This document shows, piece after piece, positions 45-57,943 of a DNA stretch of 64,000 nt (within the stretch, counting starts at the first letter, position 1; every line of letters starts with the position of its first letter). Location: the IMG/VR virus record IMGVR_UViG_3300042540_000565, positions 2,018-66,017 of that record, one strand, 5' to 3'. Made by a program: the position numbers and the translations under genes. Under the pieces are notes generated by a model that saw only the letters and a list, made by a program, of their open reading frames with translations, searched no databases and had not been told where the DNA came from. This DNA comes from a virus (Duplodnaviria > Caudoviricetes).

Positions 45-2284
45 TGAACTTTAATATAGTTGTAAACCCTGTCCGCCCAAATCAGCTTGATGAAGTCAAG
101 AATGAGGCGTATCATAATAAATTTGCTCGCTGGACGCTAAACGGGTTAAATGACTTATATCATAGAGAATTTATTTTAAAGTCTATGACCAACTGGTCCT
201 TCTATAAAGGAGGAGATGGTCAATGGATATTTGATGAAGATTTAGAAGGCTTTTTCCTTGACGAAAGCGGTGATGTCCGTAATCGTCTTAAGTGGACAAA
301 GAACTTAATCCGCCCTATGGTGGAACAATATGTAGGTAATGCTATTCGATTATCTTATAACGCAAGAGCTAAAACATTTGGAGACTTTGTTGTTAATCGA
401 AGAGAGAAAGAAATGTTAAGGCTTAAAGGCTTCCATAAACTTTCTAAGTTGATGCCGGATATGAAGGATATAATTTCTGACCGTGTTCCTATTCGCGAAA
501 CCGAAGAGGAGACTATGGAGGATTTCGACCTTATGTTTGACGATAACCTTACAGAGACGATTAACAACCTTCTTACATATATAGAGAAGGATATTGATAT
601 TGTCGAGATAAAAGTTCGTATTGCTAAATTTATGGCGATAAACGGAATCGGAATTTACAAGGGTTACGAGTCTAATATGAAATATTGTGGCGAAGCTATC
701 GACCCAATGTTCTTCTTTTTTGATCATACCGCAATAAAACCAGATTTATCAGACGCAGCTTACCAAGGTCAATGGTATTGGATGAACCCATCTTCTATTT
801 ATGAAAGGTTCCAGGATATCTCCGCTGAAGATAGAGAGTCAATAGAAAAATCTTCTGTTACCACATCAATTAATGCACAGTCATTAATCAACCAATATTA
901 TACATACGGAACTCCGGGTGGACGCATTCCTGTTTATGAAACATATTGGAGAGATACAGAACCACAAGAATACGGATACGTATTAGACGACTATGGTTAT
1001 GCTATGTTTGTTCGTATAAATACGGAAGAAAGCAAGTATAAAACCAAAGATGTTATTGATCCTCCTAAGAATGAAAAGACAGATAAGCTTTTCACTAAAG
1101 GCAAGAAGACAACTAAGATTTACGTAGACACATTAAGATATTGCATTTTTGTTCCTTCCGAACAAATTGGTGCAGCTAAAGATATTATTCTTGAGTGGGG
1201 AGAGTTGCCATATCAAGAAACAAACAGATATGATCCATCAAGCGTTCAGTATCCATTCAAGGTTTATACTTGGAACTATGACAAGGGACAAATTGTTACG
1301 CCATTAGATGACGCTATTAATCCTCAAAGATTAGTTAACCGTATGTATTCTGTTGCGGAGAGCCAAATTAATAATTCAGGCGTATCAGGAACAGCCATCG
1401 CTGCTGAGGCTATAAACCCTCGTGATGGAGAAGAAGGAACTAAGAGAGCTGTTAATACAGGAAAGCCTATCGTTTTAGAAACGGTTCGTACAGGATCAAT
1501 TCAAAATTCGATTGGACAATATTCAACCACACTTAATCCAAACGTCTTTACCTTATTCAATACCGCTAAAGAATTCCAAATGTCAATGGGAGACGTTACA
1601 GGTATCAACGAATCAATGATGGGTGCAGGAAGTAATGCTGATACCGCTGTTGGAGTTACCCAGGCTAATATTGGAAGAGGAAGTCTTATTCAGGAGCCAT
1701 TCTATTATGGAATAACAAAAGTTCTCGAACAAGCATATCAACACATGGCTACGGTAGGTAAGAAAATCTATTACGATTCCCCACGAAGAATGGCAATGAT
1801 TACCGGTGATGGAGGGTATGAGATTCTGACTGTCACTAAAGACCACATGTTAGAAGATTTCCGTATTGATGTTGAGAGAACAGAAAATATTGCTACACTT
1901 CGATCTAATGCTGATGCCTTAATTTGGACGCTATATCAAGCTCAATTAATAGATCCATATCGTTTCTCTATGTTACTTGGAAGAGCTACACCGGATCAGG
2001 TTACTAAATCTTTCCGTGAATATCAGACAGAGTTACTTGCTGCTAAAAACCAACAGGACAATATTAATCAGCAGAGAATGATTCAAGAGCAGGAACAAAT
2101 GGGCGCTATGCAACAACAACAAGCAGGGATGATGCAACAACAACAAGAGCTTGCTATTGCTCAAGACGAGAGAGATAAGGATCATGAATTACAAAATACA
2201 GCCCTAAAAGAAGAGAGTCAAACTGAGAGAACAATTATTGGCGCTGAATTAAATAATAGAAATAACTTGCAGAATAGGAAATAA
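44..2284 (+). CDS. Portal protein (crAss-like podovirus type)
   Basis: 746 aa, mostly helical; NLIRPMVEQYVG and DAINPQRLVNRMYS portal-type segments, Q-rich C-terminal barrel; directly precedes scaffold and capsid genes. Confidence 0.85.
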   Translation: MNFNIVVNPVRPNQLDEVKNEAYHNKFARWTLNGLNDLYHREFILKSMTNWSFYKGGDGQWIFDEDLEGFFLDESGDVRNRLKWTKNLIRPMVEQYVGNAIRLSYNARAKTFGDFVVNRREKEMLRLKGFHKLSKLMPDMKDIISDRVPIRETEEETMEDFDLMFDDNLTETINNLLTYIEKDIDIVEIKVRIAKFMAINGIGIYKGYESNMKYCGEAIDPMFFFFDHTAIKPDLSDAAYQGQWYWMNPSSIYERFQDISAEDRESIEKSSVTTSINAQSLINQYYTYGTPGGRIPVYETYWRDTEPQEYGYVLDDYGYAMFVRINTEESKYKTKDVIDPPKNEKTDKLFTKGKKTTKIYVDTLRYCIFVPSEQIGAAKDIILEWGELPYQETNRYDPSSVQYPFKVYTWNYDKGQIVTPLDDAINPQRLVNRMYSVAESQINNSGVSGTAIAAEAINPRDGEEGTKRAVNTGKPIVLETVRTGSIQNSIGQYSTTLNPNVFTLFNTAKEFQMSMGDVTGINESMMGAGSNADTAVGVTQANIGRGSLIQEPFYYGITKVLEQAYQHMATVGKKIYYDSPRRMAMITGDGGYEILTVTKDHMLEDFRIDVERTENIATLRSNADALIWTLYQAQLIDPYRFSMLLGRATPDQVTKSFREYQTELLAAKNQQDNINQQRMIQEQEQMGAMQQQQAGMMQQQQELAIAQDERDKDHELQNTALKEESQTERTIIGAELNNRNNLQNRK

Positions 2285-53733: not shown

Positions 53734-54021
53734 TTACGCCTCGATAGTACATAAGTGTTTTAGTAGCCACCCAGAATAAATTTCGGTATCATTGTTTCCT
53801 ATATGCTTAATAAAAAGAATGGGATCGCCTATAAACAATTCTGCTTTTGGATATTGCTTGTAAAAATCTTCTTCGTTTTCAAAGTCATCATTATTATCTA
53901 TATGCTCTAATAACCATTGTTCAAAGACAGCCCTAACAGTTTCGATAGTGCCACTTGATAATACACAAGATTCGTTTTCGTATTTGTCGTATATTTGATA
54001 TACATCTTTGTTTTTACTCAT
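53734..54021 (-). CDS. Hypothetical early protein with an AGGAGG leader
   Basis: 95 aa ORF. Confidence 0.55.
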   Translation of the reverse strand: MSKNKDVYQIYDKYENESCVLSSGTIETVRAVFEQWLLEHIDNNDDFENEEDFYKQYPKAELFIGDPILFIKHIGNNDTEIYSGWLLKHLCTIEA

Positions 54022-54039
54022 AATATGTTTCCTCCTATT

Positions 54040-54207
54040 TTAAATGATTAATCCGAATTGATTTAATACTAATGTTGCCACCGTAATAATAGCCACAACC
54101 AACAGAGTCCATTGGTTAGCCGTTAATGTTACCTTACCCTTACTAATGGGCGTTGCCTCCCTTTCCTTTTCAAGGCGGGCGGTTATCTCTCGTTTAATTG
54201 CATTCAT
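54040..54207 (-). CDS. 55-aa membrane protein
   Basis: Start MNAIKR at 54207; C-terminal TM helix WTLLVVAIITVATLVL. Confidence 0.55.
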   Translation of the reverse strand: MNAIKREITARLEKEREATPISKGKVTLTANQWTLLVVAIITVATLVLNQFGLII

Positions 54208-54209
54208 AA

Positions 54210-54362
54210 TTAATAGTTTACTAAGGTTGATAATAGGACAGTAAATCCGAAAACGATAGATAATGCTTCGCTTGTTACGTCTTCGTTGCCTTTCTTTTTG
54301 TTTATGCTCATCACACCCCATACAAATAGTACAAGGGCGGAAATGTTAATTAATAAAATCAT
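54210..54362 (-). CDS. 50-aa two-TM membrane protein
   Basis: MILLINISALVLFVWGVMSINKKKGNEDVTSEALSIVFGFTVLLSTLVNY* (manual translation). Confidence 0.55.
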   Translation of the reverse strand: MILLINISALVLFVWGVMSINKKKGNEDVTSEALSIVFGFTVLLSTLVNY

Positions 54363-54574
54363 AGTGATGCTAAATAAGGGTTAATAATTCGTTTCTCTAA
54401 TGGGATAATGTTGCGTACAAACGTAGCCCGTTGAACGTCCGTAAAGTTCTCGGTCAGTTCTTGGATCATTTGCTCTCGTGTTAATTTAGGCTCAGGCTTA
54501 ACCACAGGCTTAACCATTGGCTTGATAGGGGCGGAGGCTTTCACCCAGATTTGTTTCGTTAGTCTTGTTCTCAT
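54359..54574 (-). CDS. Basic hypothetical early protein
   Basis: 71 aa with KP/VVKP repeats. Confidence 0.5.
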   Translation of the reverse strand: MRTRLTKQIWVKASAPIKPMVKPVVKPEPKLTREQMIQELTENFTDVQRATFVRNIIPLEKRIINPYLASL

Positions 54575-54646
54575 AATGTTTGGATTTTATAATTTAACTT
54601 GGTTATTTTTGGTTTTTGACCTTGAAAGTTTGAGGAAATCCCTCAA

Positions 54647-54679
54647 TAAAAATAAGGAAGGGGCCGTTGCCCCTTTCCT
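54647..54679 (-). terminator. Intrinsic terminator downstream of the candidate ncRNA
   Basis: AGGAAAGGGGC-AACG-GCCCCTTCCT followed by TATTTTT on the minus strand. Confidence 0.7.
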
Positions 54680-54753
54680 CACTTACCAATTTATTCACTT
54701 GGTTGTGTCGAATGTTGCTTCCGAATCTATCGACTCAGTCACTCACGTTTGTA

Positions 54754-54801
54754 TGGTTCCTGTCGTGTGAATCGAACACACGCTCCCCTACCAAGCCAGG
54801 A
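54754..54801 (-). ncRNA. Mini-tRNA-like element (acceptor stem plus T-arm plus ACCA; no D-stem or anticodon arm)
   Basis: 5'-TCCTGGC TTGGTAGGGGAGC GTGTG TTCGATT CACAC GACAGGA A CCA-3'. Confidence 0.7.
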
Positions 54802-55440
54802 ATAGACCGAATATGGTTTTGTTACCCTGTGAATATATCGAACTGACCGGCTTACTCGTTGCGGAAAGTCTGTTACCTTTCACTTGCTACCATAAGGATG
54901 GGCAGACAATTTTCTGTTGCCTGGCATTCGGATCTTTTTTAGTGAGTGAAACGCTCACGATTTGTTTAACCTCACTAACCTTGAGGAAGTAATTGAAATT
55001 ATATACAACTACGGTTTTGGGGCCTCGTTTGTATATTCTAATGCTCTTAAGTATTACTATAAATCAGATACATTACTTGTTTATCGCACTCGTATGTGCG
55101 CTTCCAAGTCCGCATAACTCTTCCATCTGTTACCTAATAACTATTGGTTAAATTGTGCGTATATTGTTGCTCCCGAATGAAGCAACCAACTAAGTTATAT
55201 ACAATAAATTGTACCTGTCCACGTTTTGACAGTTTTGCCCACTATAAATGGGGTTTGGTTTCGGTTACATTTGTGCCTACTATATTAATAAATATAGGCT
55301 TACAAATTTTTTCGGCTTTAATGAGTTTAAAAATTAATTACTTTGCAGACTGCCAACAAACTATTTTTTACCTAATAATATAAACCAACGGCAAATTATT
55401 AGAATAGATTGAAGGTAATTAACTTTTAAGTTACCTATAC
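54754..55440 (-). ncRNA. Candidate large structured ncRNA ending in the tRNA-like domain; 5' limit uncertain
   Basis: About 1 kb gap with no credible minus-strand ORF, many hairpins and a downstream terminator. Confidence 0.5.
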
Positions 55441-55569
55441 ACCATCAAAAAAACAAGGAACAAATGAAGGTTTAAATATTAGGCTTTAACCTTCTTAAAA
55501 AGCCAATGAAATAGGGCAAAAGTTCAACTTTTACAGGGGTTTATTTGCAACCCCTTAAGCCCTATTTTT

Positions 55570-55995
55570 TTACTTACTTGTTTGCTCTGTTACGATTGTG
55601 TTAATCATCGTGAACACATCATTAATGTTAAATTTTTCTCTCGGCACATCAACACCTCTAATATTTGTAAATTTTCTAAAATACTTGTCGAAATTTTGAA
55701 TTATAAAAAAATCAGTTGAAATTTTAACTTTATTCAGGTTGTTAACTTCTAAAATAATAGCCTTTAAATTTGCTCTAAATTCGAGGCTATTTGTATCGTT
55801 TGTATATTTGCCTGTTCCTTGCACAAATTTTTCAATTCCTGACATCCCTCTTAATTCATTCAAAGCATTTTTATAATCTTGCTTTGCATCCTTAATTAAT
55901 TCACGAACAAATGCCTTTGTAGTGGTTGTTTGTAATTTTGCTTCTCTAACTAAGTTAGCCTTTACGATTGCGGAGTTGTTTTTTAAGTTTTTCAT
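55570..55995 (-). CDS. First early gene, basic hypothetical protein
   Basis: 141 aa directly after the 56079 promoter. Confidence 0.6.
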   Translation of the reverse strand: MKNLKNNSAIVKANLVREAKLQTTTTKAFVRELIKDAKQDYKNALNELRGMSGIEKFVQGTGKYTNDTNSLEFRANLKAIILEVNNLNKVKISTDFFIIQNFDKYFRKFTNIRGVDVPREKFNINDVFTMINTIVTEQTSK

Positions 55996-56071
55996 AATGT
56001 TTAAATTTTAAGGTTATTAATTATTATCAATTATTTGATGAGACAAAGTAAGGTTGTTTAAATTACTTATG

Positions 56072-56079
56072 CAAATATA
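56072..56079 (-). promoter_or_regulatory. Early promoter -7 box TATATTTG
   Basis: TAnnTTTG match at the head of the minus-strand early block. Confidence 0.6.
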
Positions 56080-56189
56080 TTCTAATATATTAGACGAATA
56101 ACTAATAACTGTAGATTAAACTACCTTTTTAATCGATGAATCAAAGATATATATAACTCCCCCTCTCTACATTCCTACGAATGTAGGTA

Positions 56190-56580
56190 GGTAACAACCC
56201 CAATAACAAGGAAGGGAATTCCCTTAATAGATTACTAACTAACTACTGACTGAAGGGAAGTAATAAGATAGGCACCCCATAAACTAAGTAAGCAACCCAA
56301 AGGGAAGGGAAGGGAGGCAACCCCTAAAGGAAGGAAGGAACAACCCCCCCCCTCAATAATTAATAACCCCGAAGGGGGTGGGATTGATCATTGATCTTGG
56401 TTTTTTAAAATGGTAGGGTAGTTTTTTTTGGGATATTACCCCTACCCATAGAAAAGTACTCCCTACCCATCCAATGTTACCCCCCCCCTACCTTTTCGGT
56501 ACTCCCTTACCTGTTTGGGTTACTCTTTTACCGTCCTGATGTCCGGTGGGGGGATAGGACAGGTGGGGTTACCCTATCCC
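56190..56580. repeat. Low-complexity purine/pyrimidine-tract repeats at the strand-divergence point
   Basis: GCAACCC..AAAGG(G)AAGG(G)AAGG(G)A twice (56292-56341); TAC(Y)nTACC iterations and C-tracts at 56437-56532. Confidence 0.6.
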
Positions 56581-56736
56581 TTATAGAAGATATAGAAGAT
56601 TATCAGAAGATGGTGGAATTTGTAAGTTGCTGAGTGGGTGGATTGTTTTTTAGGCAAAGTATCAAGATTTGATAGTTTTGAAACTGAAAAGTAAAAGAAA
56701 GTGATAGTTTTAGGGTTGGGAACTAAATAAAAGTTA

Positions 56737-56744
56737 TACTTTTG
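56737..56744 (+). promoter_or_regulatory. -7 box TACTTTTG upstream of the tRNA cluster
   Basis: TAnnTTTG match. Confidence 0.45.
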
Positions 56745-56863
56745 TGGTATTATGAAGCATGCAACAAATATTCTGTGGTCCTTCCGGTAAGGACTCCCGT
56801 GAATAGGATGGTTAGCGCCATGAATAAGCGGGTTTAACGGGCTTTGGTGGGTTTTATATTTAT

Positions 56864-56936
56864 GGCGGGGTAGAGAAGTGGTCATCTCACTGGTCTCATA
56901 AGTCGGCAATCGCAAGTTCGAATCTTGCCCCCGCTA
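56864..56936 (+). tRNA. tRNA with CAT anticodon (Met, initiator-like body)
   Basis: Acceptor GGCGGGG/CCCCGCT, D-stem GAGA/TCTC, anticodon loop CTCATAA, T-arm GCAAG-TTCGAAT-CTTGC; CCA not encoded. Confidence 0.85.
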
Positions 56937-56980
56937 CGAAAGTCCAACCATGAAATAAAAACTCAGTGGCTCTGGCGGTT

Positions 56981-57070
56981 TGTGTAGTGCCGCAGATGGT
57001 TAGCGGATGGGGCCTTGTATGAAATTGGCAAGCAACCCTGCAGTCGTTGGTTCGATTCCAACCTACACAA
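56981..57070 (+). ncRNA. tRNA-like RNA with an expanded anticodon arm
   Basis: Perfect acceptor TGTGTAG/CTACACA, D-arm CCGC/GCGG, T-arm GTTGG-TTCGATT-CCAAC, but 23 nt where the 7-nt anticodon loop should be. Confidence 0.7.
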
Positions 57071-57091
57071 TAATTAGTTCTTTAAACGTGT

Positions 57092-57160
57092 TGTGGGTAT
57101 TGGCTATAAACGTCAGTCTCGAAAGGATTATCTATCGAAGGTAGATAGTGCCCACTACCA
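57092..57160 (+). ncRNA. Degenerate cloverleaf ending in ACCA
   Basis: GTGGGTA/TGCCCAC stem, three internal hairpins and a 3' ACCA; lacks T- and D-loop consensus. Confidence 0.4.
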
Positions 57161-57166
57161 AATTAA

Positions 57167-57302
57167 GCATCCGGCTTGTTGCTTTGACCCCCTGAATCGG
57201 ATAACTGGGGTTCCTGAACCTGGGATGGAAATGAGTGGCAAAACAATTGTCAGACACAGGTAAAATCGTGACAGTCGGGAAAGACCGACCCCTTTCGGGG
57301 GA
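57167..57302 (+). ncRNA. Candidate structured ncRNA (hairpin series)
   Basis: CATCC/GGATG, GACCCC/GGGGTT, TGTCA/TGACA, GTCGG-GAAAGA-CCGAC, CCCC-TTTC-GGGG. Confidence 0.4.
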
Positions 57303-57382
57303 TTGATTAGTAACCTATAAATTAATAAATATGGAAAAGAAGAAAGATGGTTCATCCGCAAAAAGTAAGACGGGGGTTCCAA

Positions 57383-57943
57383 ATGAGTAATAAAGATAAA
57401 GTCACTCCTAAAAAGGAGGAGGTAAAGGTTCCCATCTACGAAGTTTTCGACAAGGATTATAATAAGGTAGCTGTATGCTTTGATGAAAAAATCTCGGTTG
57501 TAGTGGGTAACTTCCTAAACAATGTTTACGAAGGAGGTGTTCTTCTTGCTCCCTATCCACCGATGGGTAAAAACTTTTTCATCAATAGAAGGACGGGAGA
57601 AGTGTTCTTGTATGATGGCACTAACTATGCTTGTATTGAAAAGCAAATTGAACAGTCTAAGAAAATACCCTCAGGCACTTGGTTACAAAAACAAGAAGAG
57701 GAACTTCTTGCCAGTCTGAAAAAGGAACAGGATGATATGTGGGGACGTTCCCACGACCTATTGATGGATAAGCTTAACGGCTTGTATCCTGAAAAGGAAA
57801 ATAAGGATTTAGTGCTACGTACCCAACTTCCATCCGACCAACAGGTAAGGGATTGGATTAAAGACAATGAGGAGCTATTCGGATTTGACCAAAACACAAA
57901 ACTAACTATCCTCGCCTTTATGGGGTGGGTTAAAAGCAGATGA
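57383..57943 (+). CDS. Hypothetical protein
   Basis: Likely start is MSNKDK at 57383 within the tracked ORF 57347-57943. Confidence 0.5.
   Translation: MSNKDKVTPKKEEVKVPIYEVFDKDYNKVAVCFDEKISVVVGNFLNNVYEGGVLLAPYPPMGKNFFINRRTGEVFLYDGTNYACIEKQIEQSKKIPSGTWLQKQEEELLASLKKEQDDMWGRSHDLLMDKLNGLYPEKENKDLVLRTQLPSDQQVRDWIKDNEELFGFDQNTKLTILAFMGWVKSR

Follow-up and report, generated by a model that had tools for sequence, protein, structure and literature searches.

Here we describe a gene-free stretch of 995 nucleotides (nt), positions 54575-55569, in the genome of an uncultured tailed phage (Duplodnaviria; Caudoviricetes), and the RNA that it may encode. The DNA analysed, referred to below as the window, is a 64,000-nt stretch (positions 2,018 to 66,017 of IMG/VR record IMGVR_UViG_3300042540_000565) that covers almost the whole of a ~66 kb genome. 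We consider it about an even call that this gap represents a modular, processed and untranslated segment of early RNA, read from the minus strand and composed of small modules set within fast-evolving AU-rich filler. An initial annotation of the same DNA had proposed a single large and ornate non-coding RNA (ncRNA) of 400-700 nt at the head of the early region; what stands of that proposal is an early RNA, most likely untranslated, of the minus strand and apparently bounded by processing signals, while the single ornate molecule does not. Two elements carry this interpretation, namely a tRNA-like minihelix found in five phages at the downstream border of the gap, and a probable twister ribozyme at the other end of the corresponding gap in a relative.

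A non-coding gap and its tRNA-like border

The gap is non-coding. As the initial annotation had it for the minus strand, there is no credible open reading frame (ORF) within 54575-55569, and this holds for both strands and also under recoded stop codons, as reading TGA as tryptophan, TAG as glutamine or TAA as glutamine leaves the gap closed in each case. Within the gap, stop-to-stop frames reach at most 58 amino acids (aa) in the minus-strand reading and 80 aa in the plus-strand reading. Only three minus-strand ATG ORFs reach 12 aa or more (15-22 aa); none of the three is hydrophobic, and small proteins were rejected as an explanation. Protein-level conservation of the plus-strand ORFs, which had been raised as possible counter-evidence to an RNA, was not found: a 79-aa ORF on that strand has no relative among 1.84 billion representative proteins, and its single database hit (E 7e-5) came without an aligned stretch. 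Decayed genes were likewise rejected, since a tblastn comparison of 2,734 ORFs from 29 related loci with positions 54300-57400 yielded only noise within the gap. In one distant relative the corresponding gap (L012:4640-4960, minus strand) holds three tandem ORFs of 28, 29 and 41 aa, each with a single hydrophobic segment and membrane-like in character.

Such a stretch is exceptional in this genome, in which strand-consistent ORFs occupy 92.7% of the window and the 64 kb contain just two gaps longer than 250 nt, the other being a region of 1,351 nt (55996-57346) that contains tRNA genes. Genes run rightward from 57347 and leftward from 55995, and the gap follows directly on the first early gene, as had been noted, a minus-strand gene of 141 aa at 55570-55995 that belongs to no family. 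Downstream of the gap lies a conserved early gene of 71 aa on the same strand (54359-54574).

The 3' boundary of the gene-free RNA is marked by the minihelix, located at 54754-54801 on the minus strand. It consists of an acceptor stem, a linker and a T arm only, with no cloverleaf: a 7-base-pair (bp) acceptor stem containing a single mismatch, a linker of 13 nt, a T stem of 5 bp whose loop reads UUCGAUU, and the tail ACCA. The element is not called a tRNA by ARAGORN in its standard modes or by the RF00005 model at E<=10. Counterparts were identified, always on the strand opposite the terminase, in four relatives (L001:67-129, L008:37-83, L023:255-305 and L012:4495-4622). Across the five phages the T stems differ in sequence and all pair at five of five positions, the acceptor stems differ and pair at six or seven of seven, and the T loop reads UUCGAUU or UUCGACU; the parsed tails are ACCA, ACUA, CUAA, UCAA and ACUA, that of L008 becoming ACUA when a 6-bp acceptor is assumed. 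The minihelix of each of the four relatives is followed after 12-38 nt (12 nt in L001) by the ATG of an early gene. Elaborations include an extra 7-bp hairpin in L001 and an insert of ~100 nt in L012 and L013, which in L012 contains a D-arm-like hairpin. The terminases of the minihelix relatives are 41-48% identical to P0006, the closest terminase relative in the JGI collections and the query used here, and ~45% identical to that of the window. Together these features give the element the shape of a substrate of the RNase P and CCA-enzyme type, which is kept by covariation.

The linker (54782-54794) offers a view of where this element may have come from. Its UUGGUAG and GGGG segments equal the anticodon loop and 3' anticodon stem of tRNA-Thr(GGU) in many IMG/VR phages, and because of this identity we suggest that the minihelix descends from a tRNA-Thr gene by an internal deletion that removed the D arm and the 5' anticodon strand. 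The alternative that it is a fragment of a host tRNA serving as a phage attachment site (attP) was rejected. None of 185,579 species genomes contains an exact copy of the 24 nt that make up the T arm and acceptor strand, the scanned ORFs yielded no integrase domain, and the minihelix retains its 5' acceptor strand, which covaries.

As the initial annotation also recognised, the gap ends in this minihelix and then in a strong intrinsic terminator, located between the minihelix and the 71-aa gene (54650-54684, minus strand). Its stem, which begins 70 nt after the minihelix, comprises 15 bp with a GGGGC/GCCCC core and a 4-nt loop, and is followed by U5. The terminator occurs in the window only; L001 has no equivalent.

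A probable twister ribozyme and an unalignable interior in L001

Comparison of the gap interior draws on the one relative that reaches this junction, the IMG/VR contig L001. Searches with the 141-aa, 71-aa, amidoligase and terminase proteins and with three DNA patterns, which covered viral, metagenome and genome contigs as well as GenBank phages, reached no further junction, and an 18-mer scan of viral contigs returned unrelated coding sequence only. The terminase of L001 is 99% identical to that of the window. In other respects the contig is mosaic, as it lacks the window's tRNA genes and 198-aa gene, and its first early gene is an unrelated one of 148 aa. Nevertheless, it too has a gene-free stretch in the corresponding position (~126-656). 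The two phages have in common the leader and N-terminus of the 71-aa gene, which align to L001 68-1, and a promoter-side non-coding region (window 56129-56768 against L001:1248-1841) that represents the best-conserved non-coding DNA between them at 72-85% identity, with one block at 85% over 415 nt and another at 72%. This region, at the point where the two gene directions diverge, is rich in C-tracts and repeats.

At the head of the L001 gap, on the minus strand at 619-559, we identified a match to the type-P1 twister model (RF03160) that spans the full model (positions 1-68) at 52.7 bits, with an E value of 1e-10 to 2e-11 (1e-10 in a search of 1.3 kb), the score lying short of the 67.2 set for gathering. 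This AU-rich variant retains all five core motifs, and the CCC/GGG pseudoknot appears, as judged by eye, to be replaced by UUA/UAA. The match is located between a hairpin that follows the first gene and an A-run belonging to a three-way element. We regard it as a probable twister ribozyme from these sequence features. A ribozyme is meaningful only as RNA of its own strand, and it is thus very likely that minus-strand transcription in L001 continues from the first gene into the gap and gives a gap RNA whose 5' end is produced by the ribozyme and whose 3' border is tRNA-like. The minus strand is favoured as the RNA in the window as well, because the probable twister of L001 is on that same strand at the head of the gap.

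The window itself contains no recognisable copy. Twister, hammerhead, pistol and hatchet models found nothing in 54000-57500 at E<=10 or in the whole window at E<=0.05, and a regular expression for the twister core motifs (UAA, GCC, CAAGCC, AAA, GAG) recovers the L001 copy and none in the window, which retains only the last few twister nucleotides, fused to the end of the 141-aa ORF. Beginning two bases after the stop codon of the 141-aa gene lies a three-way-junction hairpin (55509-55567, minus strand) with a 9-bp outer stem and two inner hairpins. Its pair probabilities are 0.87-0.99, and its folding z-scores, which here and below are against dinucleotide shuffles (200 in this case), are -4.46 on the minus strand and -4.13 on the plus strand. 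It is preceded on the minus strand by A7, which forms a T7 tail on the plus strand. An 18-nt segment comprising this A-run and the start of the outer stem is found again in L001 (566-549), immediately following the probable twister; chance copies of this 18-mer are present in unrelated coding sequence of phages as well.

Between these borders no shared sequence was detected. The interiors, ~700 nt in the window and ~400 nt in L001, could not be aligned by blastn, nhmmer, Smith-Waterman or MAFFT, and that of L001 folds at z -3.7 on the minus and -3.2 on the plus strand. This pattern of common flanks on both sides around a first gene and an interior that are wholly different, together with the few twister nucleotides left fused to the 141-aa ORF, is what would be expected if the gap were a non-functional scar of module exchange, left over from the swap of the first early gene and not yet purged. 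We consider a scar quite unlikely, since 0.7 kb of junk would be costly in a genome that is 92.7% coding, no pseudogene remnants were found, a long gap has been kept in both lineages, and one module of 123 nt within it, described below, is unusually stable.

The same arrangement can also be read as one of RNA excision. A lineage-specific cargo ncRNA of 0.4-0.7 kb, freed by a conserved frame and acting in trans, as a decoy or sponge for instance, is unlikely in our view, though with some weight. The gap and its L001 counterpart might then, with similarly low likelihood, represent two cargo RNAs within one conserved excision frame that are released early in infection; equally tentatively, the head of this frame might be a self-cleaving ribozyme or a three-way hairpin and its tail a tRNA-like element cut by RNase P. 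The bracketing of the L001 gap by a probable twister and a tRNA-like element suits such an excision, both interiors fold better than their shuffles, and both phages have kept a long gene-free stretch in compact genomes. However, no ribozyme is present in the window itself, the excess of folding is within the range of coding controls, and the two cargos have no motif in common and no known target or partner. The gap shows no more complementarity to genes of the phage than chance would give, and antisense regulation of these genes was rejected on the same ground.

Local structure of the gap

The 995-nt gap matches no Rfam 15 family. At gathering thresholds the only hits are two of tRNA type, at 56864 and 56981, and 54575-55569 remains without a match at E<=10, whether searched within 54000-57500 or alone with permissive filters (3.5 kb and 1 kb, respectively), or in the search of the whole window at E<=0.05. 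The noise admitted at E<=10 scored 10.9-18.7 bits against gathering scores of 35.6-100. GOLLD, ROOL, HEARO, group I and group II introns and all classes of self-cleaving ribozyme were absent at the thresholds used, and the GOLLD-like membership that the initial annotation had considered is rejected.

Measured against shuffles, the full 995 nt fold at z -4.67 on the minus strand and -2.96 on the plus strand. Much of this is owed to the flanking terminator, minihelix and three-way hairpin, as values fall to -2.98 (minus) and -2.59 (plus) for the interval 54802-55440 to which the ornate RNA had been assigned, and to -2.77 and -2.29 for the interior as a whole (54802-55508). Real coding sequence of the same genome provides a fairer control than shuffles. 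Thirteen sense-strand coding segments of 707 nt gave a mean z of -0.98 (standard deviation 1.35, minimum -3.16), with three of them at -2.2 or below, and 90 coding segments of 150 nt gave a mean of -0.51 (standard deviation 1.25), with 1% below -3. In steps of 150 nt the gap rises above this background only at 54551-54800, which comprises the terminator and the minihelix, at 55451-55650, which comprises the three-way hairpin, and at 55001-55200, the only place in the interior to do so. The initial annotation had named folding no better than shuffled controls as a reason to abandon its RNA; the interior does fold better than its shuffles, at z of about -3, yet most of that signal is removed by the coding controls.

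The excess at 55001-55200 is associated with a module of 123 nt and three hairpins (55070-55192, minus strand), the only interior piece with clear excess structure. Its stems comprise 8 bp, 9 bp around a 5-bp hairpin, and 5 bp around a further 5-bp hairpin; it folds at z -4.93 on the minus and -4.29 on the plus strand, none of 200 shuffles being as stable, and G-U pairs give it longer helices on the minus strand. A counterpart in L001 was not found. Downstream of it lies weakly structured filler (54802-55069, minus strand) with small hairpins at 54942-54958, 54970-54986 and 55001-55036, no ORF and no repeats, in which 150-nt windows score from -0.4 to -2.1 on the minus strand. Upstream, an AU-rich domain that we assign to neither strand (55327-55429) is closed by a 15-bp imperfect inverted repeat (I8) and reaches a z of only -2.5 on the minus and -1.5 on the plus strand.

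Seven hairpins had been pointed out in the initial annotation. Five of these (54942-54958, 54970-54986, 55085-55100, 55166-55186 and 55275-55299) pair with a probability above 0.8 on at least one strand, that at 55001-55036 is moderate (~0.65), and that at 54901-54921 is weak (below 0.6). Hairpins in this stretch are short (5-9 bp), and its GC content is 29-39%. In a single-sequence partition-function fold of the 995 nt, minus-strand helices with a probability of at least 0.6 span at most 103 nt, with the exception of a lone longer helix (P 0.62) that clashes with the acceptor stem of the minihelix, and no long-range helices or multistem junctions are predicted with confidence.

These results bear directly on whether the gap encodes one large ornate RNA with a single complex tertiary fold, either of a new class or a very divergent GOLLD or ROOL. 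GOLLD is often found near tRNAs and in prophages (PMC5737381), and ROOL has been shown by cryo-electron microscopy to contain six junctions and three pseudoknots (10.1101/2024.12.08.627333). The gap resembles both in being several hundred nucleotides long, non-coding, phage-borne and located beside tRNA-type elements, and its minus-strand z of -4.67 over the whole 995 nt would be fitting. Unlike them, however, it has no Rfam match at E<=10 and no predicted multistem junctions or long-range helices; its confident helices are almost all local, its interior is neither conserved in L001 nor more stable than the coding background, and the stretch is AU-rich with short hairpins only. We therefore find a single ornate RNA of 400-700 nt unsupported, and consider even a divergent or new class quite improbable.

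The near symmetry of the z-scores between strands raises a further alternative, in which the region would act as DNA, carrying delayed-early promoters or operators, a replication origin or an injection stop comparable to the iss of phage T5, and in which the hairpins would be inverted repeats. A role of this kind, which we judge rather unlikely, is consistent with the 15-bp AU-rich inverted repeat at 55327-55429 and with the situation in the distant relative L023, where at least nine copies of a palindromic 12-mer, approximately TATGCGTGCATA, populate the gene-free stretch upstream of the minihelix (440-1100, minus strand) and look like operator, promoter or iteron sites. Nothing comparable to this motif occurs in the gap of the window, which is without any repeated motif, iteron or direct-repeat family. 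G-U pairs, moreover, extend eight hairpins on the minus strand as opposed to four when the plus strand is folded, which weakly favours the minus strand as RNA, and no canonical Bacteroidota promoter was found on the minus strand inside the gap. In the T5 iss, direct repeats, palindromes and DnaA boxes are densely arrayed, and this region is better conserved than its neighbouring genes (10.1101/866236). The gap shares with it a gene-free location of about 1 kb or more with inverted repeats directly after the first-expressed genes, but it is free of repeat families and shows no conservation with L001; no multi-copy motif of the T5 type was detected, DnaA boxes not having been specifically searched. 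Hairpin promoters for a virion RNA polymerase of the N4 type were rejected, as there is no motif common to the hairpins, and the 2,951-aa protein of the window is without a Pfam hit and, as is also the case for the terminase, found no tblastn match among 50,697 GenBank phages.

Proposed early transcription and processing

The signals around the gap allow a tentative course of events to be proposed for the segment as a modular, processed minus-strand RNA. Upstream of the first gene the minus strand carries Bacteroidota -7 boxes (TAnnTTTG) at 56079 and 56149, and no canonical Bacteroidota promoter or -7 box was found on that strand inside the gap. Host RNA polymerase might thus start near these Bacteroidota-type promoters, transcribe the 141-aa gene, pass the three-way hairpin (55509-55567), which might act as a 3'-end stabiliser or partial terminator, and continue across the gap. 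Host tRNA-processing enzymes would then recognise the minihelix, with an RNase P cut predicted between 54802 and 54801 and the 3' end trimmed to the CCA tail, and the terminator at 54650-54684 would stop most transcripts, such that the 71-aa gene and later genes would require read-through or a separate promoter. RNase P-type cleavage and termination at 54650 would in this way separate the transcript of the first gene from the later early genes, and the outcome would be a boundary between immediate-early and delayed-early expression. In L001 the twister would instead make the first cut, right after that phage's own, different first gene.

A plus-strand reading was also considered. A full Bacteroidota promoter consensus, TTTG-N21-TATTTTTG, is present on the plus strand at 54579-54611 and points into the gap, and an antisense RNA of ~950 nt could run from it to the three-way hairpin, which on this strand is followed by seven T (55509-55568); the hairpins at 54942-54958 and 55039-55056 are also better on the plus strand. 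We nevertheless consider such a transcript very improbable. The promoter motif is not conserved in L001, and motifs of this type occur about once per 10-16 kb per strand, mostly within genes, so that the match is probably a chance occurrence in T-rich sequence. Furthermore, the plus-strand ORFs are not conserved, the excess of folding is smaller on that strand, and in L001 the A7/T7 run abuts the minus-strand ribozyme, making it more likely to be a minus-strand linker.

Several known systems provide a context for the proposed processing. Polycistronic transcripts of phages and bacteria are punctuated by tRNA-like elements that are cut by RNase P. In mammals a tRNA-like element, mascRNA, forms the 3' end of the long non-coding MALAT1 transcript, a eukaryotic and nuclear case. 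By analogy, a tRNA-like end in the phage would let RNase P set the 3' end of the gap RNA and release a small CCA-tailed RNA, although, unlike mascRNA, the phage element also precedes an mRNA. Lambdoid and T-even phages place terminators at the boundary between immediate-early and delayed-early genes; the window is similar in that a first early gene is followed by a strong intrinsic terminator before the other early genes, but it differs in that no antiterminator protein or element of the nut or put type was identified and in that the terminator is missing in L001. Finally, self-cleaving ribozymes near phage genes, including twister and hammerhead, have been proposed to process polycistronic transcripts (PMC6765202), and our interpretation agrees with this proposal. 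The likeness consists of a covarying minihelix at an early-strand gene boundary in five phages and of the probable type-P1 twister at the other end of the L001 gap; by contrast, the window has no recognisable ribozyme, and the processing elements lie 0.4-0.7 kb apart rather than at adjacent gene borders.

The ORF scan identified a portal, a terminase and a primase-helicase, the primase being 56% identical to those of Flavobacterium phages. The 141-aa protein gave no lead to function in Pfam, PHROG or Atlas, and its relatives (P0002-P0004, 78-91% identity) were found in Logan only, on contigs of up to 13.7 kb. The 71-aa protein, whose gene anchors the homology with L001, has relatives (P0126-P0129) at 75-86% identity on short contigs. 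A recurrent leader close to TAACCTTAAAAC, followed by an A-rich segment and ATG, precedes the minus-strand starts at 55995, 52044, 51655, 50378 and 48566 by 10-25 nt, with variants at 54574, 46142 and 36239. It is probably the translation-initiation leader of a phage poor in Shine-Dalgarno sequences, and its TAAAA core matches the reported Flavobacterium ribosome-binding consensus.

A number of points weigh against reading the gap as modular processed RNA with mere filler between the modules. We infer its strand, its ends and its processing alike, and the twister score remains below the Rfam gathering score. The z-scores are nearly equal on both strands, which would also fit inverted repeats acting at the DNA level. 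It would be unusual for 0.7 kb of plain filler to persist in a phage, and this speaks for some role of the interior; both interiors beat their shuffles somewhat (z -2.8 in the window, -3.7 in L001), and the 123-nt module stands out at z -4.9. In addition, the whole first-gene module has been exchanged in L001, so that the non-conservation of the interior may reflect replacement rather than a lack of constraint.

Together this work indicates that a long, gene-free and hairpin-rich stretch beside tRNA-like elements need not be a GOLLD-type RNA, and that ordinary coding sequence in this genome also attains a folding z of about -3 against shuffles. If the gap were instead to encode a cargo RNA, an uncultured clade of Flavobacterium-type phages would free RNAs that differ from lineage to lineage, possibly as decoys against host nucleases or defence systems. 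If the gap is, as we favour, a modular and processed early RNA segment, it would add to the cases in which Bacteroidota phages use tRNA look-alikes and self-cleaving ribozymes to cut early transcripts, this time from a clade that has no cultured member. Most noteworthy are the conserved family of tRNA-like elements and the pairing of a probable twister with such an element around a variable RNA in L001, both of which predict exact RNA ends.

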